Positions 19,806 to 62,731 of a stretch of DNA of 64,000 nt are shown here, piece after piece. The stretch lies in the NCBI GenBank assembly GCA_000146465.1, contig CP001947.1; one strand, 5' to 3'. Numbering within the stretch: the stretch's first letter is position 1; the number at the start of each line of letters is the position of its first letter. Under the pieces are notes generated by a model, which worked only from the letters and a program-made list of their open reading frames with translations, did no database searches and was not told the DNA's origin. The position numbers and the translations under genes are program-made.

Positions 19806-20786
19806 TCAGAAGTCGACATCTATCCTGAACGAATCATTTCCATTATCTATCCCCACAAATGCCTTCTGGTACTGTGACTCTCTCTTGTCGAAGAAGTTTG
19901 TCTTTCCAACCAAAGAGATGTTCTCCATAAAATCAAACGGGTTGGGAGTATGGTATATCTTCTCCTCCTCAAGATTCTCTAGGAGAGTATCGGCTACAAA
20001 CTCTATATATTTGCACATCAACTGGCAGTTCATCCCTATAAGATCCACTGGAAGACTTTCACTCAGAAACCTCTTTTCAACTTCGACTGCATCCATCACC
20101 ACCTCCTTTACTCGCTTGCACTTCTGTTTCAGGTAACGTCTATGCAAAAGGCATGCAAACTCACAGTGCAGACCCTCGTCCCTGCTTATCAGCTCGTTCG
20201 AAAACGTTAGTCCAGGCATCAGCCCTCTCTTCTTCAGCCAGAATATAGATGCAAATGACCCAGAAAAGAATATACCCTCCACACAGGCAAACGCCACAAG
20301 CCTTGTTGCAAAGTCAGAATTCTTATCCTCAATCCATTTTATTGCCCAATCGGCCTTGTCTTTCACAGAGGGGATAGTTTTGACTGCATTAAAAAGGAAC
20401 TTCTTCTGTTCTCCGTCCCTTACATACGTGTCAATCAGCAGGCTGTACATCTCACTGTGGATGTTCTCAATTGCAATCTGGAACCCATAGAATAGCTTTG
20501 CTTCAAGCATCTTGACCTCGCTGGAGAACCGCTCCACCAGATTCAGATTGACAATTCCATCAGACGCCGCAAAGAATGCAAGAACATTGGAGATAAAGTG
20601 CTTCTCCTTTGGATTTAACTTCTTCCAATCTTCAATGTCTTTGTCGAGGAGAACCTCTTCCACAGTCCAGAACGAGCTTTCAGCCTTCTTGTACATCCTC
20701 CATACATCTTCGTGTTGTATGGGAAAGAGTACAAACCTCTCTTCTTTAGGATCCAATAGTGGCTCAATTTTTTCTTCGCAACTCAT
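19806..20786 (-). CDS. RNR2: ribonucleotide reductase small subunit (R2)
   Basis: Full-length R2 with the di-iron/tyrosyl-radical region ([41 protein letters not shown]). Confidence 0.92.
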
Positions 20787-21064
20787 AAGCTATTTGACAG
20801 AATCTGCTTATATACTTTTTTTTGGAGGGAATATCTCCCTCAAAATAATAATCATCTAAATTCAATTTTACAATCCTTGCTCGATCTAATTTCGTCGATC
20901 CCCTCTTGGCATTTGGCTTCACCCACCTAAGCCATGGCGGGAGAGCGGCCCCAGAACCTAAGCTAGGAATGACTATTTATTGTAAATAATGTTCCCTATA
21001 AAAGGAACACTGGTATTATTTATATTTACTGCACCCTATATATTATAACTATTATTGAATGTTT

Positions 21065-21717
21065 TTACTCAAGATCAATAAATTCCTTTCTCATGAATGG
21101 TAATATACGTTTTCTCGCATTTGCAAACCAATTATCTATTTGAGACAATTTTAGTCCTGTTTCTTTAGAAAGTATTTTTTTTCTATTTTAGTTGGATAAG
21201 GATTAGAAAGATGCTCCTTTAGCCATCTTCTTAGCATTTTGGACACTTCTCTTGGAAAATTAGCTCTCCTAGAATGAGGACTACTTCCGAGCCAACCATT
21301 AGTTGATGAATTATTTCTTATATAACTCTCATACCTGTATAAATCCCTCTCGTTCATTACATTCATCATATCTATGATGTTGTCCATTTTTCTTTGGAGT
21401 TTGGTGCATTCTGAATCAAATATAGAAACAAGATTTTTTTCAAATAGTAATGCATACTTAAATTTCTCAGCAATTAGAAACAAAGCTAGCTTGTGTGATA
21501 AGTTATTCGGAAAAAAATGTGTATTGGAGCATGTTTCGTAATTTTTCCGAATTTTTAATAGGACTTCCTTCAAATGATGTTCATTTATCATTCCTTGAAA
21601 ATATTGTTCTTTTGCGATTAATATTTGGCCAATATGCTCCACCATATCTAGAAAACTATCGGCATTTAAAACAAAAATTGATAAACTCGTAATTAACGTT
21701 ATAAAAATAATATCCAT
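21065..21717 (-). pseudogene. TALE-class homeodomain gene interrupted by a 1-nt frameshift in an A8 run (pseudogene or homopolymer error)
   Basis: ORF 21151..21717 ends ...FPREVSKMLRRWLKEHLSNPYPTKIEKKYFLKKQD*, i.e. helix 1 plus the PYP TALE loop. The -1 frame continues ...ILSKETGLKLSQIDNWFANARKRILPFMRKEFIDLE*, i.e. helix 2 plus the helix 3 WFxNxR motif, to a stop at about 21065. The two frames meet at the T8 run on the + strand at 21175-21182. Confidence 0.65.
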
Positions 21718-21797
21718 ATCACTTCAGAAGACTATTATAACTTGTCAAACTCATCAAGACAAGATAAAGTATAAAATAAAAAGATATTTTACAAAAT

Positions 21798-23276
21798 ATG
21801 AATTTAGGATGGCTACTGAAGATTCCAATGCGAAAACATTCAAACAGGAAAATAATTGTATATGAAAATAGCATGGCTTCGTTTTACTCTAGGACGTTTG
21901 AAATAATTGAAGAGCATATTTCTACCATATCCAATAATGAACATCATAGAGATGGATTAGTAGAGTATATAGAAATGTTATCATATTTTCAAATCTCTAA
22001 TGAAGATCATGAGAAAAAAGAAGAAATTAATAGACAAAGGCAAAGCTTACTTAAGAAATTTAGATCCCTAACCTTAATTAGTATTTCAAAAGTAGAAAAA
22101 GACAATAGGAAAATATTGAAATCTTATCATGGAGTATTACATCTTTTAGATTTGATTGGTTTTGGTGTAAATCCTTATGAAATGGTTTTAAAAAAATGGT
22201 TAAACACCAATTGTATGATAATTAGTGATGTAGAAAGACATGCCATAAGAGGAAATTTCGAAAAAGTGATCGAAGCATATCCCTATTTAAACGAGGCTAT
22301 TAATAATTATTTAAACTTAAGGAAGACGTCAGGAAATGAATACAGGAAATTATTTGCGTCTTGGAAGATCAAATATTTTAAAATTATTCCCAATAATTTA
22401 AAGGAAATTCTTTTTCATAATATTAACGGGGATGGTATTGACTGGATTGATCATATTTGCTATAAATCGTTTTGTATGAACACACAAAGGAATGGGATCG
22501 ATCTTATAAATAGGGAAGATGAAATCGGAATGATATTAACACATAATTATGATGCACTAATAGAACGTTCTAAAGGATGGATTAGACTAGTATTATTGTT
22601 CGTTTGCCCTCATACAAAATTTGATTTATTTCCAAGAGCATTTGAATCTATCGGGAAATTCCTATATTTATCAGATTATCGCTTATCTTTGAGATTTTTT
22701 TCGTACACAGAGAAACTAATCTTATACTTTAATCACTTTTCCTGTAAGTTTTCTAAAAGTCTTTCGGATTTAGAATTCTTGGTTGAGTATTCCAAAAAAA
22801 ATAATATTAATGGAAATTCTTTGTTAAAAGAGTACTGCCAAAATCTTCTTTCTAATCAAGAGTATTATAATCTTTTTTATGTTATATCTAAATATGAGCT
22901 CTGCGATATAAACATAAATTCCGAGTTTATAGAATTCTGTATTAGAAATACAACAATACTAACTGAAAACTTCACTAAAACATCGTATGGAATTTTTATT
23001 GGAAACTTTAGGAGATTTCTTAGTGGAATAAAAGTTGGTGAAGGTGAAATTATAGCATTGATAAATTCAGATTATTTTTCAGCTCTAGATAGTAGAACAT
23101 TTGAAATAATACTAGAGAACAGATGCATTACTGTGAACATGCTTTATAAGCTTTTAGAAGGAATGTTAAATGTGGAAAGAAAAGGGAAGTCTAATCCCAT
23201 ATTGAAAAGCAAAAAAGCTTTAGTTCTCAATAAGTTAGCGGAATCTACAGGTCTCGGGAAGGACATATCAATTTAA
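21798..23276 (+). CDS. hypothetical AT-rich lineage-specific protein (492 aa)
   Basis: ATG start; Asn/Ile/Lys/Phe-rich composition; no homeodomain or other recognisable domain; transcribed divergently from the HD gene with an 80 bp intergenic gap. Confidence 0.45.
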   Translation: MNLGWLLKIPMRKHSNRKIIVYENSMASFYSRTFEIIEEHISTISNNEHHRDGLVEYIEMLSYFQISNEDHEKKEEINRQRQSLLKKFRSLTLISISKVEKDNRKILKSYHGVLHLLDLIGFGVNPYEMVLKKWLNTNCMIISDVERHAIRGNFEKVIEAYPYLNEAINNYLNLRKTSGNEYRKLFASWKIKYFKIIPNNLKEILFHNINGDGIDWIDHICYKSFCMNTQRNGIDLINREDEIGMILTHNYDALIERSKGWIRLVLLFVCPHTKFDLFPRAFESIGKFLYLSDYRLSLRFFSYTEKLILYFNHFSCKFSKSLSDLEFLVEYSKKNNINGNSLLKEYCQNLLSNQEYYNLFYVISKYELCDININSEFIEFCIRNTTILTENFTKTSYGIFIGNFRRFLSGIKVGEGEIIALINSDYFSALDSRTFEIILENRCITVNMLYKLLEGMLNVERKGKSNPILKSKKALVLNKLAESTGLGKDISI

Positions 23277-23614
23277 ACTATTAAACTGGTAGTATCAATT
23301 TAAATTACAAATACTTTGGAAATATCTCCTTCTGTTTATTAACTTTTCAAGGGATTGCCGTTTTTTAAAACAAACATATAAGAGTGATGATACATAACTT
23401 CTTTTTGTATTCTTAAGTAAATTCATGTAAAATTTTAGAATAAAATGTCCGAAGATATTTGAGTTCCTATAGCAATAGCAGAAACACACCCTATCTCAAT
23501 TCATTATACTTCCTGGGAATCCATACTTTAAAGATTTAAAGTAAAACTAAAAAGGAAGGGGGTGTTTATTTCAATAGATTAAAATCGAAATATTGTATTT
23601 TTAAACTAAGAGAT

Positions 23615-26461
23615 TTAATGAGCAAACACTCTGGAGACATATACCGGCCCGAGTATCTCATCAATAGAGAGGTCTTCTTTTGCTATCTCGTTGACAGCCT
23701 CAACAACTTTCTCTTCATAGCTCAGGTCGATTATACCCCTTAGATACTTGTTCCATATGTCGGTGCTGTAGATTTCAAAGTTTTTCTTCCTTTCCCTGAA
23801 GAACGAGATGACTCCGTTTCGGAACTCTTCAAACTGATCTTCGCTCATCTCTCTGAAGTATTCGTCCAGGTCTTTTACAAACTTCCTTATCCTCTTTTCA
23901 AGGAAGTCTACATCCTTCTCGCTTTGCACTATGAATTTGATGTACTGCTCGTCATCTAGATTCAGAACCCCAGACCCAACTACATACCCAAGCTCTTCCT
24001 TTGTCCGCAGATCATCGAAGAACATCGCTTTGCATGACTGTTGTACAAAGTGGGCTATGGCTGCATCCTTGTGGTTCCTGCATTTTCCGCAATAGTAGTT
24101 CAAGGAACATGCATTGTTCACCTTGTCGCTTGTTTTCACATCACATCTGTATTTTCCATCAAGAAGATCTTTCTTTACATAATCGTATACTTCCTCCTGT
24201 TTCGAAAGAATATTTTCAAATATCTTCTCGGCATCTTGATACTCGATGTTCCCAATCACAAACATTTCCAAGAAGAACTTTCGGCTCATCTTGAATTCCG
24301 TGTCTACAGAGCTCAGCTTCTCCATCAGCTCCTCTGCCATCAAATGTCCGGGAATCCTCATGCACTTCAGCCCTTCATTGCATCGCTTGTGAGGGCTTTC
24401 GTTTCTCTTTGTCTCAAACTCATTCCAAATCCGCTCCTTCACAAGGTTCCGCCGTGACTGGTTGGGCTCTTCAAACAGAATGTCGAAAAACTGCCGGGAG
24501 ATCTCAACACTCATGTGGTTAAAGCATTCTATCCGAATCTCCACCCCATAGTGCTCGACACGAACATCGATGTTCATTCCTGTTCCGTGAAGATATCCAT
24601 CGTGCCTTCTAAAGAATTGGCTCTTGGCATTTCTGAGCAGAAATATCAAGTTAATCATGTTCTCATTGATTTGGTCCATTCGAAGAAGACATCCTATAAA
24701 GACCTTTGGAACCTTGTAGGTATCGTTAAACAGGTAGTTGATTTTTCCTCCAGAAACCTCCTTTGAAATAATTTCTGAAGGGGCCTCGATTTTTATCATC
24801 TCTCCTTCCTTCCACTCAACTGCCTTCTCCAGTGAGTCTTCAGAGACCACTTTGTCTTTTTCATTGTACTTCGGAGAATACACCTCTTCTGTTTTAAACT
24901 CCCCCTTTAAATCCTTTTGCCCTTGAAGTTCGAGCCATTTGGAGAAATCCGTCATCTTCTGGACAATCTTCTTGACTTCTTCTTTCTTTCCTTTAGAGGA
25001 CTTCTGGGGAAGGACATTTGGGAACACCTTTTCTTCTTTCTTTGGTAAGTCCAACTCAAATATCTGGTCTCCCACATTGTATCTCACCCCATATATCTCC
25101 TCGCGCATGTCAAACATCCCTGTTCCCTTTGCAACATGGAACACAAGCCACTTTGGGAAGTTCATCATCTTTTCCACAATCCCCTTGATCTCGTTCTTGT
25201 CAAATTTCTCAAAACAGTGTTCGTTATCAAGAACATTCTCAACCGGGAAAAACTGCATGTTTCTAGAGATCTTCTGTGCCTGGTACATAGGCTCGTCACT
25301 CTCCTCGTACTTGAACACATATCTCGATCTCTTTTGGATCTCTTCATACTCATCAGAAGAGATGGGGATGTCTTTGAGATACCTTACAAGTTCTAAAAGA
25401 ACTCTTTCAGGTCTTTTGTTTCCCTCGGAAGACAGATGCATTGTTATTATTATCAGAGAATAGTCTGTGTAGTGGCACATCTCATACTCAACCTGCAGAA
25501 CGAGCCCTTTGTCCTTAACCCTACATGCAAACCCCTTTGTATCGTCCCGAAGAAACATATTCATTACATACTCGTAAGGATTGTTCTTGAAAATCTTGTA
25601 CCCCGACTCAACAGTCATTGTAACAACAATCGATCTTGTATCTGCAATAGGCTCCACCCTGATCCATCGGTTGGTGTATTCAGAGTCAAACACAGTCCAT
25701 TCCTTGTCTGCTTCAAGTTCTATGTTTCCACTGCTCTTCTTCTCCTCGGTCCCCTTTGGAACCCCCTCAAACATCTTCAACATCTCCTTTAGCTCCTCCA
25801 GACCTTTGTTTCCACAAATCACTGTACACATTTTATCGCAGGAATACTTCTGTTTCCAGAACTCTGCCATCTCTTCCCATATCCCTTCTTTTCGAAGTGT
25901 GTCGTAGTTTCCTGTGCTGAACATAGATATCGGCAGTTCCTTCTTGCAGCATCTTGAAATCATCCTCCAGATCCTCCAGTCATCAACATTCAGTCCGTTA
26001 CAGAACTCGGAGTTCACAGCCGACACCTCTCTCTCCACCGAGTTTTTCTTCAGCAGTGGTGTCTTGAAGAAGTCTGCAAGTCGGTCCACCCCTTCTTCAA
26101 AAGCCTCAGGAGCAATATCGAAGTAATACACAGTAACCTCTCCATAGGTGGAGGCATTGTATTCCCCGTTGTTCTTTGAAAGGAATTTGCCAAAATCCTC
26201 TTCATCAGGGTATTTCTCAGTCCCCATAAACAGCATATGCTCAAGGAAATGTGCAAGACCTTGAGTAGATACCGGGTTATCAAACGATCCAACCTTGACA
26301 GAGACTGCACAGCTGCACTTGTCCAGTGAAGGATCCGACATAATCAGCCCTCGCATCCCGTTGGGCATCTCGACATACTCATATTCCATCGAGTCGGTGA
26401 GACTCTTGTGAATCTTTTTGGCAACTTTAAGACAATTCATTAAAGCGGAAAGCCTAACCAT
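23615..26461 (-). CDS. M16A zinc metallopeptidase (insulin-degrading enzyme / insulysin-like)
   Basis: Inverted zinc-binding motif HFLEHMLFMGT (HxxEH) and the downstream E; about 950 aa of M16 architecture; start set at MVRLSALMNCLK (CCC upstream) because the ORF-track start at 26599 would overlap the divergent neighbour. Confidence 0.85.
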   Translation of the reverse strand: MVRLSALMNCLKVAKKIHKSLTDSMEYEYVEMPNGMRGLIMSDPSLDKCSCAVSVKVGSFDNPVSTQGLAHFLEHMLFMGTEKYPDEEDFGKFLSKNNGEYNASTYGEVTVYYFDIAPEAFEEGVDRLADFFKTPLLKKNSVEREVSAVNSEFCNGLNVDDWRIWRMISRCCKKELPISMFSTGNYDTLRKEGIWEEMAEFWKQKYSCDKMCTVICGNKGLEELKEMLKMFEGVPKGTEEKKSSGNIELEADKEWTVFDSEYTNRWIRVEPIADTRSIVVTMTVESGYKIFKNNPYEYVMNMFLRDDTKGFACRVKDKGLVLQVEYEMCHYTDYSLIIITMHLSSEGNKRPERVLLELVRYLKDIPISSDEYEEIQKRSRYVFKYEESDEPMYQAQKISRNMQFFPVENVLDNEHCFEKFDKNEIKGIVEKMMNFPKWLVFHVAKGTGMFDMREEIYGVRYNVGDQIFELDLPKKEEKVFPNVLPQKSSKGKKEEVKKIVQKMTDFSKWLELQGQKDLKGEFKTEEVYSPKYNEKDKVVSEDSLEKAVEWKEGEMIKIEAPSEIISKEVSGGKINYLFNDTYKVPKVFIGCLLRMDQINENMINLIFLLRNAKSQFFRRHDGYLHGTGMNIDVRVEHYGVEIRIECFNHMSVEISRQFFDILFEEPNQSRRNLVKERIWNEFETKRNESPHKRCNEGLKCMRIPGHLMAEELMEKLSSVDTEFKMSRKFFLEMFVIGNIEYQDAEKIFENILSKQEEVYDYVKKDLLDGKYRCDVKTSDKVNNACSLNYYCGKCRNHKDAAIAHFVQQSCKAMFFDDLRTKEELGYVVGSGVLNLDDEQYIKFIVQSEKDVDFLEKRIRKFVKDLDEYFREMSEDQFEEFRNGVISFFRERKKNFEIYSTDIWNKYLRGIIDLSYEEKVVEAVNEIAKEDLSIDEILGPVYVSRVFAH

Positions 26462-58933: not shown

Positions 58934-60745
58934 ATGGCCAAGCCATTGCAAACCAAGATCAAGAGCTCTCGCTCAAACCAACTAGCCCAGGGTGTACTTA
59001 TAGTGATTCTGTCGATTCTTCTGTTCAATAAGAAAGCATCTATAACAAGAGATGAGACCGAGTTTATAAGAAGTCTTAAATCTTATGAACAAGGGAGATT
59101 CTGTCTCTACAAGCATCTTCCATTGCCAGGCATACTCTGCCATGGCCTGAAGAAGACCTTCTCGTATATGAATGTTCCTTTGCTATCCTTGGTATTGGAA
59201 AGCCCTAGACTGGTCAGCCTTGGACTCTTTGTTGTGACCATGCTGCAGATCTCCTGGCTATCCCAAGAAACATACAATCTGGAAGCTTCATGGATGGTTT
59301 TGGTGGTCTATATGGTCAGGTTGTTGGTCAACACTCAAACCATATTCTCCACAAACGAGATGTTTTCTATATGTTTTCTTGCAGGAGGGATTGTTCAGAT
59401 AAAAAAGAAACGCTCCTTTACCTCTGGGATTCTGATTGGGCTTTCGGTGGCGTCTAGCTGGGCATCTCTGTGTATTTTGCCTCCTCTTGCAATATTTTAC
59501 GGCATTGAACTGTTCTCATTTGCAGCGAACCCTGTAAATCGGTTAAGCAAGGCTTTTCAGAAACTTTTCAAAGGAATTATTGCATTTGCAGTCATCCCAG
59601 CTTCTATATATTTCCTGTCGTTTCTTGTGCACTATTCTATCCAGAACCAACATGCAAGAGATGCCGAAAAGTTTTCTGTCGAATTCCAAGCAACACTGAA
59701 AGGAAGCATGCACGAGCCCACAGACAAGTATCTCATGGACAGAAGCATAGTTACTATCCTAAACCAAAAACACAACGTGTATTTAAATATGAAGGAAGGC
59801 ATTCCCTCATGCTCTGGACAGAAGGCGGAAGACTCCATGTGGATGATCATTAAGGTTCATTCCAACCACTCGGGGGGAGAAGTTGAGGAGGAGGGTAGAT
59901 ACATTAATCATGGAGATCTTGTGAAGATGGTGGAGTTTGGAAGTAATATGTGTCTGAGGGTTGTGAATGAAGACACAGAAGACAAGTTTAGAAAAGTTCT
60001 TGGATTTGTCCAGGAGGACAACGAAGCAAATGAAGAAGATATATGGCAGATAATCGGAGATGGACCAGTTGTCAGCAGGAACTCGTTGGTAAGATTCAGG
60101 CACTACAAAACAGCAATGGATCTGTGTATCAGGAGCCTCCGGAGATCCGAGGAAAGCGAAGATGGAGAAAACACTATTGAAAAAGGTGTGAGTGGGTCGT
60201 TGTACAGCGATAACAAGTCTAGACTGTTCTACATCAGTGATAACAGAAACCATGACTTCTTCAAGAAGAACTTTGAGGATGGAAGGCCTAAAGAAGAAGT
60301 CCTTAACTTTCCCCAAAAGGGCTTTATGTCAAAGATGTTTGAGCATCATAGGAAACTCATAAAAACGTCCTCTGGGTGGAAATGGGGTTCACCAGGTTAC
60401 TCCATGCTACATCTTCAAAGTGGGGAGAGGTATTTGATGAAACACGACATAGTTTTCAATATCTTTACAGTTGTATCTTCATTTTTATTTCCTGTAGTAC
60501 TTCTGGCCAACCACATTTCTTGGAAGAAGTACGATAAAGGTTTTAGAGCGAGAAAAGACGATTCTTTTGTATGTGTGATGTACTTCTGTGCAGTTCTTAT
60601 GGGAAGCATCCTCGGTTTTGGCCTAGCACCCTTGGAAATGTTAAGCACCTGGATGATGCTGAACCTTGTGTTCCTTCTTGGGATGAAGCCAGCCTTGATT
60701 TTCTTTTCTGTCCTCCTCTCTACTTCGATGAGAATCTTGAGATAA
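58934..60745 (+). CDS. dolichyl-phosphate-mannose protein O-mannosyltransferase (PMT family)
   Basis: N-terminal TM region with a DE-containing loop; central MIR-like repeats (WQIIGDGPVVSRNSLVRFRHYKTAMDL); C-terminal TM region. Confidence 0.65.
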   Translation: MAKPLQTKIKSSRSNQLAQGVLIVILSILLFNKKASITRDETEFIRSLKSYEQGRFCLYKHLPLPGILCHGLKKTFSYMNVPLLSLVLESPRLVSLGLFVVTMLQISWLSQETYNLEASWMVLVVYMVRLLVNTQTIFSTNEMFSICFLAGGIVQIKKKRSFTSGILIGLSVASSWASLCILPPLAIFYGIELFSFAANPVNRLSKAFQKLFKGIIAFAVIPASIYFLSFLVHYSIQNQHARDAEKFSVEFQATLKGSMHEPTDKYLMDRSIVTILNQKHNVYLNMKEGIPSCSGQKAEDSMWMIIKVHSNHSGGEVEEEGRYINHGDLVKMVEFGSNMCLRVVNEDTEDKFRKVLGFVQEDNEANEEDIWQIIGDGPVVSRNSLVRFRHYKTAMDLCIRSLRRSEESEDGENTIEKGVSGSLYSDNKSRLFYISDNRNHDFFKKNFEDGRPKEEVLNFPQKGFMSKMFEHHRKLIKTSSGWKWGSPGYSMLHLQSGERYLMKHDIVFNIFTVVSSFLFPVVLLANHISWKKYDKGFRARKDDSFVCVMYFCAVLMGSILGFGLAPLEMLSTWMMLNLVFLLGMKPALIFFSVLLSTSMRILR

Positions 60746-60788: not shown

Positions 60789-61580
60789 TTATTTATGAAT
60801 ACAAAATAGATGTTTCTTGGCGTTCCAGGAGTAGTCGGGTATCAAACAATTCTCTAAGATGCAGATATTTCTATTGGAATGGTTTAGCATCTCAAAGGTC
60901 TTCTCCACGACATCTCCGTAGATTTCAAGAAATTCGTTGTGCCGCACCATAATGTGTCCCTTGCTCACAGCTATCCGAATCCCTATGGGAAGGAGATCTG
61001 TCTTCCTGTCCCCAGACTCTTCATAATAAAGATTTTTTAAATTAGAAGAAATGCACTTGATCTCTCTATAAAACTCTATAGAGAAATCAAGTGCATTTGG
61101 AATATCTGTAAACACAAACAAGAAGGAGTCTCCTTCATTTCGCACCTCTAGGCCTCCATGCTCCTTACATAATCTCCTTGCAATTTCGTCGTGAAAGACA
61201 ATTGTTCTATTCATTGCATCAGGGAAACAGTTCCAAAGGTTCGAACTGTCAACAATGTCCGTTATAACCAGGATAAGGTTTCCTTGAAGAAACCTCCTGG
61301 GGATTCTTCGAGAAATGTATTTTCTGTAACAAAGCTTCCCTCCCTTCTTTCCCTGGGGAACCTCCATCTTTTTAATCTTTAAAGGCTCTTTCCCTTGGCT
61401 CCGAGAAATAAGCATGCATTTCACTCCGTCGATTATCCCGACCTTGAAGCCACAGAACACCGACCCGAGTATCCATACCGGATTAATTGCCACCCATATC
61501 GCACATGCAATCATCTGTGTATGCATCCTAAAACTATATGCCACTAGCTGAAGAATAAGCGTCATGTTGTTCTTCAACAT
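60789..61580 (-). CDS. membrane-anchored class III nucleotidyl (adenylyl/guanylyl) cyclase-domain protein
   Basis: N-terminal TM helices, then a cyclase homology domain: ILVITDIVDSSNLW (metal-binding Asp), RNEGDSFLFVF (second Asp), IGIRIAVSKGHIMV...EIYGDVVEKTFEM. Confidence 0.55.
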   Translation of the reverse strand: MLKNNMTLILQLVAYSFRMHTQMIACAIWVAINPVWILGSVFCGFKVGIIDGVKCMLISRSQGKEPLKIKKMEVPQGKKGGKLCYRKYISRRIPRRFLQGNLILVITDIVDSSNLWNCFPDAMNRTIVFHDEIARRLCKEHGGLEVRNEGDSFLFVFTDIPNALDFSIEFYREIKCISSNLKNLYYEESGDRKTDLLPIGIRIAVSKGHIMVRHNEFLEIYGDVVEKTFEMLNHSNRNICILENCLIPDYSWNAKKHLFCIHK

Positions 61581-61834
61581 GGGGGCTTTTTAAATCCGTT
61601 TACTTTTATGTCCTACCGTTTTGACAGATAATTTTGGCACAATTGCAATTTTGAGAAATTAAAATTTAATCCTCTTTCAATTATACTTCACATTTTTCCA
61701 TAGGATACACTCCCTGGATAGATTGAATTCTATTCTTCGGCCAATTTCCATAATTGGAAATATAAATAACAATATTTACAAATAAGGAATAAAAAGTAGG
61801 TAGCGGTAATAACGAAAGATGTGATGGAAAATCT

Positions 61835-62731
61835 TCACTCTACCATTTTCCAACCAAACTCAACCTCCATGCCCTTTTCCCAGTTATATTCCTTTACAAC
61901 TCCCACAGTAAAGCCGATGGTTAACCTTGTCCCTTCTCCCATTACACTGCATATCTCTTCCCTAAGGCAATTGCTGTAGACAGCCTTGAGATCCTTCCCC
62001 AGAAATATAACGTTGTTCTTACTGTCGCCAACAATAATCAAGTCGTTCCATATAGTAGAGGCCTTGATATTGTACGGGAGCTCGGTGAACGAGGCTTCTC
62101 TGGTCTTGGGATCAAACACAAGAACCTTTCTGTCAAACAACGATATCACCAATGTTTCTCTAAGAGCACCCATCGATACTATAGGCTCCTTTAGAAATAC
62201 CAAGCATGGATACTCATCCATCCAAACTTCTCTCTTCCTCCTAAATATAATGTCTTCTATCTCTACCTTCTCTATACAAAATACCTTTCCATTTTCAAAC
62301 GAGAGAAATAGTCTGTCCTCACTAACCATTCCATATGTGCATATCCCATTGGTTGATTCCATCTTCGTCTTCTTAACCTCAACATCCTCATCTTCAATGC
62401 TAATTACCATAATCTCTTTACTGCCCACAATCAGGAGCCAATTCTTGTATACAACAGAGACATCTAATGGTCCTTTTGGCGTAATGTCCTTGATCTCGTA
62501 CCCAGAAAGGAACTCGACTCTGATCTTGGACAACAGTACCCATCCATCACTGAAATACTTGATATCAACTATCTCCTTGTTCAGAGCCACTTCCTTAAGA
62601 ATCTTTCTTCTTGGCCTGTTCCATACAACCAACTTGCTTGATGTTGCAACAAGAAGAATGTCCCCTTCAGAGCCAAGAGCGAGAATCTTATCTCCGTGTC
62701 TGTATGTAAACGAACCACATCTCTTGTCCAT
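61835..62731 (-). CDS. hypothetical beta-rich (propeller-like?) protein
   Basis: 298 aa, ATG start. Confidence 0.45.
   Translation of the reverse strand: MDKRCGSFTYRHGDKILALGSEGDILLVATSSKLVVWNRPRRKILKEVALNKEIVDIKYFSDGWVLLSKIRVEFLSGYEIKDITPKGPLDVSVVYKNWLLIVGSKEIMVISIEDEDVEVKKTKMESTNGICTYGMVSEDRLFLSFENGKVFCIEKVEIEDIIFRRKREVWMDEYPCLVFLKEPIVSMGALRETLVISLFDRKVLVFDPKTREASFTELPYNIKASTIWNDLIIVGDSKNNVIFLGKDLKAVYSNCLREEICSVMGEGTRLTIGFTVGVVKEYNWEKGMEVEFGWKMVE

Follow-up and report, generated by a model that had tools for sequence, protein, structure and literature searches.

Does Encephalitozoon intestinalis possess a cyclase that could make its own cAMP? In E. cuniculi the catalytic subunit of PKA and two regulatory-subunit homologues have been retained (PMC2078597), and N. 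bombycis and N. ceranae possess PKA as well (PMC4280135). PKA is missing from E. bieneusi. The regulatory-subunit homologues were identified with PF02197, a docking-domain model, and not with the cyclic-nucleotide-binding model (PMC2078597), so that a dependence of microsporidian PKA on cAMP is not established. Most of the signalling machinery of eukaryotes has been lost in microsporidia: they have no MAPK, TOR or AMPK (PMC2078597), and neither Ras-family GTPases nor G-alpha occur in Eumicrosporea (PMC13393502). Encephalitozoon, including E. cuniculi, has no Cyr1-type cyclase with leucine-rich repeats (PMC2939053), in agreement with the initial annotation of the gene studied here, which had set a minimal protein against the huge multidomain Cyr1 type. 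Besides this small gene, no candidate was found for a cyclase that makes the parasite's own cAMP.

The Gene and its Conservation

The gene is located in a stretch of E. intestinalis DNA of 64,000 nucleotides (contig CP001947.1, assembly GCA_000146465.1), hereafter called the window. In the ORF listing of the window it runs from ATG to TAA and encodes 263 amino acids, and its coordinates (Table 1) are exactly those initially annotated. The product is 100% identical to an annotated protein of E. intestinalis ATCC 50506, and the comparison of gene order showed that the locus is syntenic with E. cuniculi. The amino-acid identity to the E. cuniculi orthologue is 54.6% (52–83% for the neighbouring genes) and pN/pS between the two is 0.36. 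Because of the annotated match, the synteny and the pN/pS value, the ORF is a real gene, and it is under purifying selection. The start of the gene reads AAAAAGCCCCC followed by ATG. A CCC/GGG motif is found at most 12 nt from the start in 15 of the 24 genes of the window, and the CCC-type motif near the start codon may act as a microsporidian transcription or start signal. The E. cuniculi orthologue bears the same kind of name and its annotation cites similarity to M. tuberculosis Y891. Such a gene had been considered unexpected in a reduced parasite genome, but since it is already annotated, its orthologue is likewise named and the family occurs throughout the phylum, its presence is not surprising. 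Literature searches found no published study of this E. intestinalis gene.

Table 1. Features of the cyclase-like gene, with positions in the window.
Feature	Position	Strand	Identification or evidence
Complete ORF, 263 aa plus TAA stop (60789–60791)	60789..61580	minus	E. intestinalis 'class 3 adenyl cyclase-like protein'
Start-codon context AAAAAGCCCCC, directly 5' of ATG	61581..61594	minus	CCC-type motif typical of window genes
N-terminal hydrophobic helical region, residues 1–60, with invariant Pro34; probable membrane anchor	61401..61580	minus	Hydropathy, AF2
Basic, poorly conserved, predicted-disordered linker, residues 61–95	61296..61400	minus	pLDDT, orthologue identity, charge count
Class III cyclase homology domain, ~165 residues (96–263), C-terminal end shortened	60792..61295	minus	
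TDIVDSS, residues 107–113: first metal-binding Asp D108, triphosphate-loop S112/S113	61242..61262	minus	Alignment
R147 and NEGDSF (residues 148–153; 61122–61139), second metal-binding Asp D151	61122..61142	minus	Alignment
R202, Arg of 'RIGIHxG' strand	60975..60977	minus	Conserved in family and canonical domains
Degenerate second half-site, E219 to E230	60891..60926	minus	Alignment to Ma1120, column counts
Family-specific H234-x5-C240...C260-x-H262, one residue then end; candidate structural Zn site	60795..60881	minus	Conservation, pLDDT

A Family of Small Microsporidian Cyclase Homologs

The assignment to the class III cyclases holds for the family, and is borderline for the single sequence. 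The Pfam model PF00211, with which the annotated domain was to be verified, matched the E. intestinalis protein with 20.3 bits (E=4.4e-4), under the gathering score of 21.9, and matched 24 of 25 family members with a best E-value of 1.2e-11. A search with the family profile yielded 701 proteins at E<=1e-10, and those that were sampled are PF00211 proteins. As initially annotated, the protein is compact and contains a cyclase homology domain (CHD) of class III. Among solved structures the family profile gave its best score with Ma1120 (E=1e-18) and also matched GRESAG4 (E=3e-15); the best solved match of the single E. intestinalis sequence is the trypanosomal GRESAG4. Fold comparison identified the predicted fold of the domain as a cyclase-type palm, with matches that include the cUMP and cCMP synthases 7r65, 8jsz and 8jsf. 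The domain lacks the usual C-terminal elements of class III cyclases. The sole Pfam match besides PF00211 was to PRANC (E=0.011, below threshold) and was judged spurious, and a match to NCBIfam LipJ (20 bits, cutoff 800) merely reflects the common cyclase domain.

About 35 relatives were found across microsporidia, including Encephalitozoon, Ordospora, Nosema, Vairimorpha, Pancytospora and Glugoides; N. bombycis and N. ceranae both possess members. The family HMM scores them with 154–198 bits and outsiders with at most 103 bits. The best-scoring outsiders are CHDs of Hamiltosporidium, Dictyocoela and Astathelohania, and a protein of Nematocida displodere (NEDG_00199, 1288 aa) that combines leucine-rich repeats with a CHD also scores. 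We treat these proteins as a family mainly because of the gap in HMM scores and the exclusive C-terminal signature described below. The protein is very probably the E. intestinalis representative of a family of small cyclase-homology proteins that occurs throughout microsporidia and in which the metal half of the catalytic site is kept and the C2-type half has decayed.

Residues of the Catalytic Site

The initial annotation pointed to two metal-binding Asp residues, in TDIVDSS and NEGDSF, and both were retained. D108 and D151 align with the canonical metal-binding pair and are invariant in 25 out of 25 aligned relatives, as are E149 and G150, and conservation reaches at least 90% at T107, I109, S112 and T113. 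In Ma1120 and GRESAG4 the counterpart of TDIVDSS in the alignment is the motif FTDIxxST. D108, E149 and D151 are invariant across about 35 very divergent sequences. Of the 25 relatives, 20 have R at position 202 and the other 5 have K, and nearly all canonical domains of the same alignment have R; in canonical class III cyclases the Arg of this 'RIGIHxG' strand binds phosphate. The alignment thus indicates that the C1-type half, consisting of the two metal Asp, the Ser/Thr of the triphosphate loop and the phosphate-binding Arg, is conserved, and that the C2-type half is decayed. From an acidic metal pair that is conserved in a fast-evolving phylum we infer that metal-nucleotide chemistry has been retained.

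The decay concerns four positions. Where canonical domains of the same alignment have the adenine-specifying Lys, the protein has R147, and the family has R, A, G, S or M but never K. The sequence G222-D-V-V-E226-K-T-F-E230 stands in place of the canonical G-x-x-V-N-x-A-A/S-R. The specificity Asp is E219 here and K, E, G, S or C across the family, the transition-state Asn is E226 (N in 4/25 relatives) and the transition-state Arg is E230 (R in 2/25). The E. cuniculi orthologue has Arg at position 230. All four positions vary freely among family members, including those of the single genus Encephalitozoon. Judging from the aligned columns, this free variation shows that the positions are not under selection, which is the pattern expected of a pseudo-enzyme or of a changed reaction. 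To our knowledge, no active class III cyclase is without the Arg, the Lys and the Asp together. The same alignment recovers the canonical D/K/D/R/D/N/R in ordinary cyclase domains, of which 66 carry both the Asn and the Arg, and the column mapping agrees with the roles published for K101, D157, A164 and R168 of Ma1120 (PMC4215837). Of the GxxxxGD-like region noted initially, a remnant (G208...G222-D223) of the canonical G..G...GDxVNxAsR block was found, from which the Asn and Arg are missing. The objection foreseen initially, that key catalytic residues might prove to be replaced after proper alignment, thus applies to half of the site, where R147, E219, E226 and E230 replace Lys, Asp, Asn and Arg. 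It had also been suggested that the substrate could be read from a Lys/Asp pair for ATP or a Glu/Cys-type pair for GTP; the protein has neither pair, and R147 and E219 instead. The catalytic domains of M. avium Ma1120 and T. brucei GRESAG4.1/4.3 (PF00211), in contrast, keep the Lys, Asp and Arg that are lost here.

Ma1120, which has Ala in place of the Asn but keeps the Arg, is active as a cyclase (PMC4215837), and several other cyclases can do without the Asn (PMC4886424). Since, in addition, R147 and E219 are conservative replacements of Lys and Asp in Encephalitozoon, some residual activity of the protein is conceivable.

The C-Terminal Histidine and Cysteine Residues

Compared with Ma1120 and GRESAG4 the protein is shorter at the C-terminus and has an invariant C-x-H end. 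All 25 relatives have C240, C260 and H262, and all but one have H234; among 291 cyclase domains this signature is exclusive to the family, and in 34/35 members C-x-H lies 0–5 residues from the C-terminus. Together with N148 these four are the conserved residues that are unique to the family. The His and Cys residues are situated in confidently modelled elements (end of helix 223–234, strands 239–242 and 259–262; pLDDT 85–93). H234 lies one full helical turn past the Arg position, and the counterpart of C240 in Ma1120 is a strand residue in a hydrophobic I-L-V run, a placement that seems to favour a structural over a catalytic role. We read the His/Cys/Cys/His set as a candidate structural zinc clip, with putative metal binding.

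Probable Membrane Association

The initial annotation mentioned N-terminal transmembrane helices. Residues 22–45 indeed exceed the Kyte-Doolittle threshold, with a 19-residue peak of 1.95 at residues 24–42, whereas a second segment (residues 40–58) is borderline with 1.53. The AF2 model has a helix at residues 2–42, with pLDDT 85–95 over residues 1–30. The Kyte-Doolittle peak is at least 1.6 in most Encephalitozoon and Ordospora orthologues and below 1.2 in several distant family members. The linker that follows has a pLDDT of 26–48 and a mean identity to orthologues of 25%, and residues 61–100 contain 13 K/R against 2 D/E. Because of the hydropathy and the basic linker, the hydrophobic helix is probably a membrane anchor, and by the positive-inside rule the basic linker fits a cytosolic cyclase domain. 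Contrary to the initial annotation, the protein is not receptor-like, since only about 22 residues precede the hydrophobic segment and there is no extracellular domain; the hydrophobic helix replaces the ectodomain of receptor-type GRESAG4.

Origin of the Family

Cyclases of the Cyr1 type combine leucine-rich repeats and PP2C with a cyclase domain at the C-terminus, and may in addition carry Ras-association and G-alpha-binding domains (PMC2939053). The combination of leucine-rich repeats and cyclase in one gene was reported as unique to fungi, and the GRESAG4 group as sister to fungal Cyr1 domains (PMC2939053). The E. intestinalis protein has no leucine-rich repeats, PP2C or Ras-association domain and measures 263 aa compared with at least 1288 aa. 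It shares with the Nematocida protein the subgroup signatures TDIxxST.LW..P..M....H and (K/R)xEGD(A/S)F, and GRESAG4 is the best solved relative of both. The Nematocida protein keeps the Lys, Asp and Arg and lacks the Asn only, whereas all four are lost from the E. intestinalis protein. No PP2C was detected in the Nematocida protein at E<=10, and a search with its cyclase domain aimed at named fungal Cyr1 proteins gave just 5 matches and no named Cyr1. The neighbour-joining tree, which like the other comparisons included no true fungal Cyr1 sequence, nests the outsiders in the order Hamiltosporidium, Dictyocoela and Astathelohania CHDs, then the Nematocida protein. Bootstrap values were 73/100 for the family together with the short microsporidian CHDs, 45/100 for including the Nematocida protein and, with core columns alone, 29/100 for monophyly of the family.

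Since the nearest outsiders are microsporidian CHDs, including that of the Nematocida protein with leucine-rich repeats, the family most likely arose by reduction of an adenylyl cyclase domain of the fungal Cyr1/trypanosomatid type; the link to Cyr1 is drawn from the architecture, the shared motifs and the weakly supported tree. A very improbable alternative, which would leave the function unaffected, is horizontal transfer of a small stand-alone cyclase of the mycobacterial type. The Y891 similarity cited for E. cuniculi and the best score of the family profile with mycobacterial Ma1120 would agree with it, as would the absence from the family of a long insert that separates helix 3 from strand 4 in GRESAG4, Nematocida and Hamiltosporidium. 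However, the outsiders that come closest in HMM score all belong to microsporidia and do contain the insert, the tree nests the family inside the microsporidian CHDs, and the single sequence finds its best solved match in GRESAG4, of the group that is sister to fungal Cyr1 (PMC2939053).

Possible Functions

We propose that the protein is a residual, non-canonical adenylyl cyclase with which the parasite makes its own cAMP for the retained PKA, and we assign this reading a probability of about 0.4. The protein would consist of a membrane-anchoring helix, a basic disordered linker and a class III cyclase domain facing the cytosol. The regulatory parts of Cyr1 (leucine-rich repeats, phosphatase domain and Ras-binding domain) would have been lost, in parallel with the reported loss of Ras and G-alpha. 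The usual head-to-tail homodimer would be formed and Mg2+-NTP would still be bound at the metal and triphosphate site, while base selection and transition-state stabilisation would be missing and the C-terminal end would be capped by the His/Cys zinc clip. As neither of these two functions would be left, the enzyme would be a slow and poorly selective cyclase at best. If it is active despite its half-empty site, it shows how little of a class III cyclase suffices, and it would offer a drug target specific to the parasite. An inactive protein would be equally informative, since the PKA of microsporidia must then either work without cAMP or be driven by cAMP from the host. That the host could supply cAMP speaks against a function as cAMP source.

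Nearly as likely as a weak cyclase is a pseudo-cyclase that binds Mg-ATP or another NTP without cyclisation and acts at the membrane as a regulatory or scaffolding subunit that senses nucleotides or metal. The freely varying second half-site is what such a protein would be expected to have. Non-catalytic relatives of metal-dependent enzymes, however, commonly lose their acidic metal ligands, and D108, E149 and D151 are invariant here in about 35 divergent sequences, which disfavours this explanation. Furthermore, no result points to a binding partner or ligand.

A bolder reading, which we consider unlikely, is that the fold was re-engineered: the two-metal/triphosphate centre was kept, the partner half-site discarded and a C-terminal His/Cys metal site gained. 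The protein might then perform a different or base-independent nucleotide reaction, or be a switch that senses ATP, metal or redox state, and it would be the only upstream input to PKA. If true, this sole input would operate in a eukaryote without Ras, G-alpha, MAPK, TOR and AMPK. Likewise unlikely is a re-purposed palm enzyme whose two-metal centre serves base-independent NTP cyclisation, release or hydrolysis of pyrophosphate, or nucleotidyl transfer, with the His/Cys site aiding substrate binding or regulation. The conservation of the metal and triphosphate half and not of the base-recognition half is in line with such an enzyme, and so are the five residues unique to the family (H234, C240, C260, H262 and N148) and the fold matches with other specificities, namely the cUMP/cCMP synthases. 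Nothing positive was found for another substrate, though, and the positions of H234 and C240 appear to favour a structural role. The second option of the initial annotation, a cyclase-fold protein with another function, is thus plausible. Its main reading, a fully competent canonical membrane adenylyl or guanylyl cyclase of a minimal receptor type, is highly improbable, since fold, both metal Asp and hydrophobic N-terminus are present but the Lys/Asp (or Glu/Cys) and Asn/Arg pairs are absent and unconserved, and the extracellular domain and the usual C-terminal elements are missing.

Comparison with Other Palm-Type Proteins

The C1 domain of mammalian membrane adenylyl cyclase is a half-site donor in a C1–C2 heterodimer, in which one site is complete and the other degenerate, whereas both sites in a homodimer of the E. 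intestinalis protein would be incomplete. These genomes are not known to encode a C2-like partner, and in N. bombycis there are just two copies, which are nearly identical. The class III cyclase-like ATP-binding protein of P. aeruginosa (PDB 6yii) is bacterial and part of a 473-aa transcriptional regulator, and the family profile does not match its sequence at E<=1e-3. The E. intestinalis protein has no match to the GGDEF-domain profile, and GGDEF diguanylate cyclases are not its closest fold. They and the Cas10 palm domains share the palm-type core and two-metal chemistry, and the EGDSF hairpin superficially resembles GGDEF.

Identity and Genomic Context of the Cyclase-Like Gene

The 263-aa reading frame proposed in the initial annotation of the Encephalitozoon intestinalis stretch is present on the DNA with both its TDIVDSS and NEGDSF motifs. 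A protein search found the product to be 100% identical to 'class 3 adenyl cyclase-like protein [Encephalitozoon intestinalis ATCC 50506]'. Orthologues occur in E. romaleae (60% identity), E. hellem (56%) and E. cuniculi (53%), the last with the entry name 'similarity to the class 3 of adenyl cyclases Y891_MYCTU'. The order helicase, P4-ATPase, thiolase, 603-aa ORF, cyclase-like gene and 298-aa ORF is common to E. cuniculi. At 54.6% amino acid identity to E. cuniculi the cyclase-like gene is among the faster-evolving genes of its locus, where neighbours share 52-83%, and its pN/pS of 0.36 in this comparison indicates purifying selection. Directly upstream of the start codon lies AAAAAGCCCCC, and a CCC/GGG motif occurs at most 12 nt from the start in 15 of 24 genes of the window. 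Synteny, pN/pS and start context therefore mark this as a real gene. Neither the 603-aa nor the 298-aa neighbour had a Pfam match at E<=1e-3.

Positions of features in the window
Feature	Position	Strand	Remarks
Low-GC stretch	20001-24000		GC 0.31-0.36 vs 0.42-0.48 in rest of window
188-aa ORF	21151-21717	minus	locus 20990-21717; within low-GC stretch
492-aa ORF	21798-23276		within low-GC stretch
603-aa ORF	58934-60745	plus	immediate neighbour; syntenic in E. cuniculi, 64% identity
Cyclase-like ORF, 263 aa	60789-61580	minus	ATG-to-stop ORF listing
TAA stop codon	60789-60791	minus	DNA reading
NEGDSF, residues 148-153	61122-61139	minus	DNA reading
TDIVDSS, residues 107-113	61242-61262	minus	DNA reading
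298-aa ORF	61835-62731	minus	immediate neighbour; syntenic in E. cuniculi, 52% identity

The assignment of a cyclase homology domain is correct, although the 263-aa sequence alone falls slightly below the PF00211 gathering score (20.3 bits, E=4.4e-4, against 21.9). This conclusion follows from family-level evidence: PF00211 is matched by 24 of 25 relatives (best E=1.2e-11), a wider-family profile matched Ma1120 of M. avium at E=1e-18 and GRESAG4 of T. brucei at E=3e-15, and the AF2 model, made with a 19-sequence alignment, has a pLDDT of 85-96 across the cyclase domain. The top sequence matches of the protein among solved structures were GRESAG4.3, GRESAG4.1 and Ma1120. A nine-orthologue profile searched against 1.84 billion representatives retrieved 6865 proteins at E<=1e-3 and 701 at E<=1e-10, and those hits that were sampled were PF00211 proteins.

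Conservation of the Catalytic Site

Catalysis by class III cyclases depends on two metal-binding Asp together with two residue pairs, one for specificity (Lys/Asp for ATP) and one, Asn/Arg, for the transition state (PMC4886424, PMC4215837). Using the family HMM, we brought 291 cyclase domains into one alignment and compared columns 108, 147, 151, 202, 219, 226 and 230, where ordinary domains have D, K, D, (R), D, N and R, respectively; Asn and Arg were both present in 66 domains. The column mapping recovers the published roles of K101, D157, A164 and R168 in Ma1120 (PMC4215837).

D108, E149, G150 and D151 do not vary among the microsporidian proteins of the family, so that both metal-binding Asp are indeed retained as had been claimed. 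Conservation is at least 90% for T107, I109, S112, T113, N148, S152 and F153, and position 202 is Arg or Lys. Position 147 is never Lys and is Arg in the 263-aa protein, which has Glu at positions 219, 226 and 230. At position 219 other members have Lys, Glu, Gly, Ser or Cys, at position 226 Asn is found in 4 of 25 relatives, and at position 230 Arg is found in two of 25, E. cuniculi being one of them. The metal and triphosphate half is thus kept, but the Lys, Asp, Asn and Arg positions are replaced and the substrate-specifying Lys/Asp pair is absent. The C1 and C2 domains of mammalian cyclases contribute different half-sites. Because D108, D151 and position 202 are conserved and positions 147, 219, 226 and 230 are replaced, the protein, as judged from the alignment, retains the C1-type half-site and has lost the C2-type half. 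Its identity and half-site anatomy are well supported, and we found no account of a systematic loss of the second half-site in the searchable literature.

The initial annotation had held that replaced catalytic residues would refute a cyclase, and by that measure the cyclase reading is, on the aligned residues, weakened but not eliminated. We know of no active class III cyclase that lacks Arg, Lys and Asp all at once. The reading survives since Ma1120 is active despite Ala at the Asn position (PMC4215837) and Asn is dispensable in other cyclases as well (PMC4886424).

N-Terminal Segment and C-Terminal His/Cys Tail

Of the proposed N-terminal transmembrane helices, residues 22-45 lie above the Kyte-Doolittle threshold (1.95), whereas residues 40-58 are borderline (1.53). 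Pro34 is invariant within the Encephalitozoon/Ordospora group. A hydrophobic N-terminal segment is found in most full-length relatives; in several the score is below 1.2, and charged residues occur in many of the segments. The model shows the linker as disordered, and it is basic (13 K/R vs 2 D/E in residues 61-100), as the positive-inside rule would predict for a domain on the cytosolic side. Membrane anchoring is plausible. The description 'receptor-like' is unsupported because the protein has no ectodomain.

At the other end C240, C260 and H262 never vary and 24 of 25 relatives have H234, a combination absent from all other cyclase domains in the 291-domain alignment. In 34 of 35 members 0-5 residues separate a C-x-H motif from the C-terminus, and in 20 its His is the terminal residue. 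The AF2 model places these residues where helix 223-234 ends and within strands 239-242 and 259-262 (pLDDT 85-93), and C240 aligns with a residue of a hydrophobic I-L-V run in a strand of Ma1120. The tail reads as a candidate structural zinc clip that would stand in for lost C-terminal elements. We found no description of this invariant signature in the searchable literature.

Distribution and Origin of the Family

The domain HMM separates about 30 family proteins (154-198 bits) from all others (<=103 bits). Members are found in Encephalitozoon species, Ordospora pajunii, Pancytospora philotis, Glugoides intestinalis, Vairimorpha bombi, Vairimorpha ceranae and Nosema bombycis (two copies), and the V. 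ceranae protein is likewise annotated 'class 3 adenyl cyclase-like protein'. The family is phylum-wide and already auto-annotated, and the gene is therefore no oddity of one genome; the cyclase-like nature of the gene is known from public annotation, and its presence in a microsporidian is unsurprising, contrary to the initial annotation. The near-identical N. bombycis copies (P0070 and P0170) belong to one 90%-identity cluster, are on different contigs and are longer (352-373 aa) through an extended N-terminal region.

The best-scoring outsiders are also microsporidian: Hamiltosporidium (345 aa, 'putative adenylate cyclase'), Dictyocoela muelleri (502 aa), Astathelohania contejeani (307 aa) and Nematocida displodere NEDG_00199 (P0145; 1288 aa), which has leucine-rich repeats (LRR) followed by a C-terminal cyclase domain. 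The latter domain matches GRESAG4.1 best (E=1e-22), and PP2C was not detectable in the protein even at E<=10. NEDG_00199 keeps Lys, Asp and Arg and is without Asn only; it may be the Cyr1 relative that underwent least reduction in this phylum, and may be the stronger candidate for cyclase activity. According to a published survey, LRR and cyclase in one gene are unique to fungi, E. cuniculi has no such gene, and cyclase domains of fungal Cyr1 cluster with trypanosomatid ones (PMC2939053).

A neighbour-joining tree of 127 cyclase domains (125 core columns, family-specific tail excluded, no true fungal Cyr1 sequences) nests Dictyocoela, Hamiltosporidium, Astathelohania and the Nematocida protein successively outward from the family. 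Bootstrap values were 73/100 for the family with the short microsporidian domains, 45/100 once the Nematocida protein was included and 29/100 for family monophyly on core columns alone. There is moderate support for the mini protein having arisen by reduction of a Cyr1-type cyclase domain, and our searches of the literature found no description of what appears to be a series of reductions from an LRR-cyclase. Ras-family GTPases and G-alpha are the classical regulators of Cyr1. Descent from a Cyr1-type domain would fit their loss, as all Ras-family GTPases and G-alpha are reported lost in Eumicrosporea (PMC13393502). Bacterial horizontal transfer, which concerns the origin and not the function, is improbable.

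Giant metagenomic proteins (P0012-P0036; 1000-4800 aa) with 3-5 tandem cyclase domains also rank high against the family profile. They combine canonical and degenerate cyclase domains within one protein, and some carry a C-terminal fibronectin type III domain.

Predicted Function

We propose, with a probability of roughly 0.4, that the protein is a residual, non-canonical adenylyl cyclase, probably slow and poorly selective, that would supply the retained PKA. The acidic metal pair and triphosphate loop are strictly conserved across a very fast-evolving phylum, which argues for retained metal-nucleotide chemistry. In E. cuniculi the catalytic subunit of PKA and two homologues of its regulatory subunit are retained, while MAPK, TOR and AMPK are missing; cyclic-nucleotide binding by these regulatory subunits is not established there, because they were detected with the docking-domain model PF02197 (PMC2078597). 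N. bombycis and N. ceranae likewise possess PKA, which E. bieneusi lacks (PMC4280135).

A non-catalytic, NTP-binding pseudo-cyclase is a nearly as likely alternative, for which the unconstrained second half-site and the precedent of 6yii speak, and against which the conserved metal pair weighs. A re-purposed palm enzyme is unlikely, and a fully canonical cyclase, given the replaced residues, very improbable.

Other Observations in the Window

No tandem repeats were found in the low-GC stretch, and its 492-aa ORF has no Pfam match. The 188-aa ORF closes with the first two-thirds of a TALE-class homeodomain (…FPREVSKMLRRWLKEHLSNPYPTKIEKK), whose remainder (KILSKETGLKLSQIDNWFANARKR…) is in a different frame. 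One added A in an A8 run would give an intact homeodomain. The apparent -1 frameshift within this homopolymer may reflect misassembly, a genuine pseudogene or slippage. Linked E. cuniculi homeobox genes were reportedly once proposed as a mating-type-like locus.
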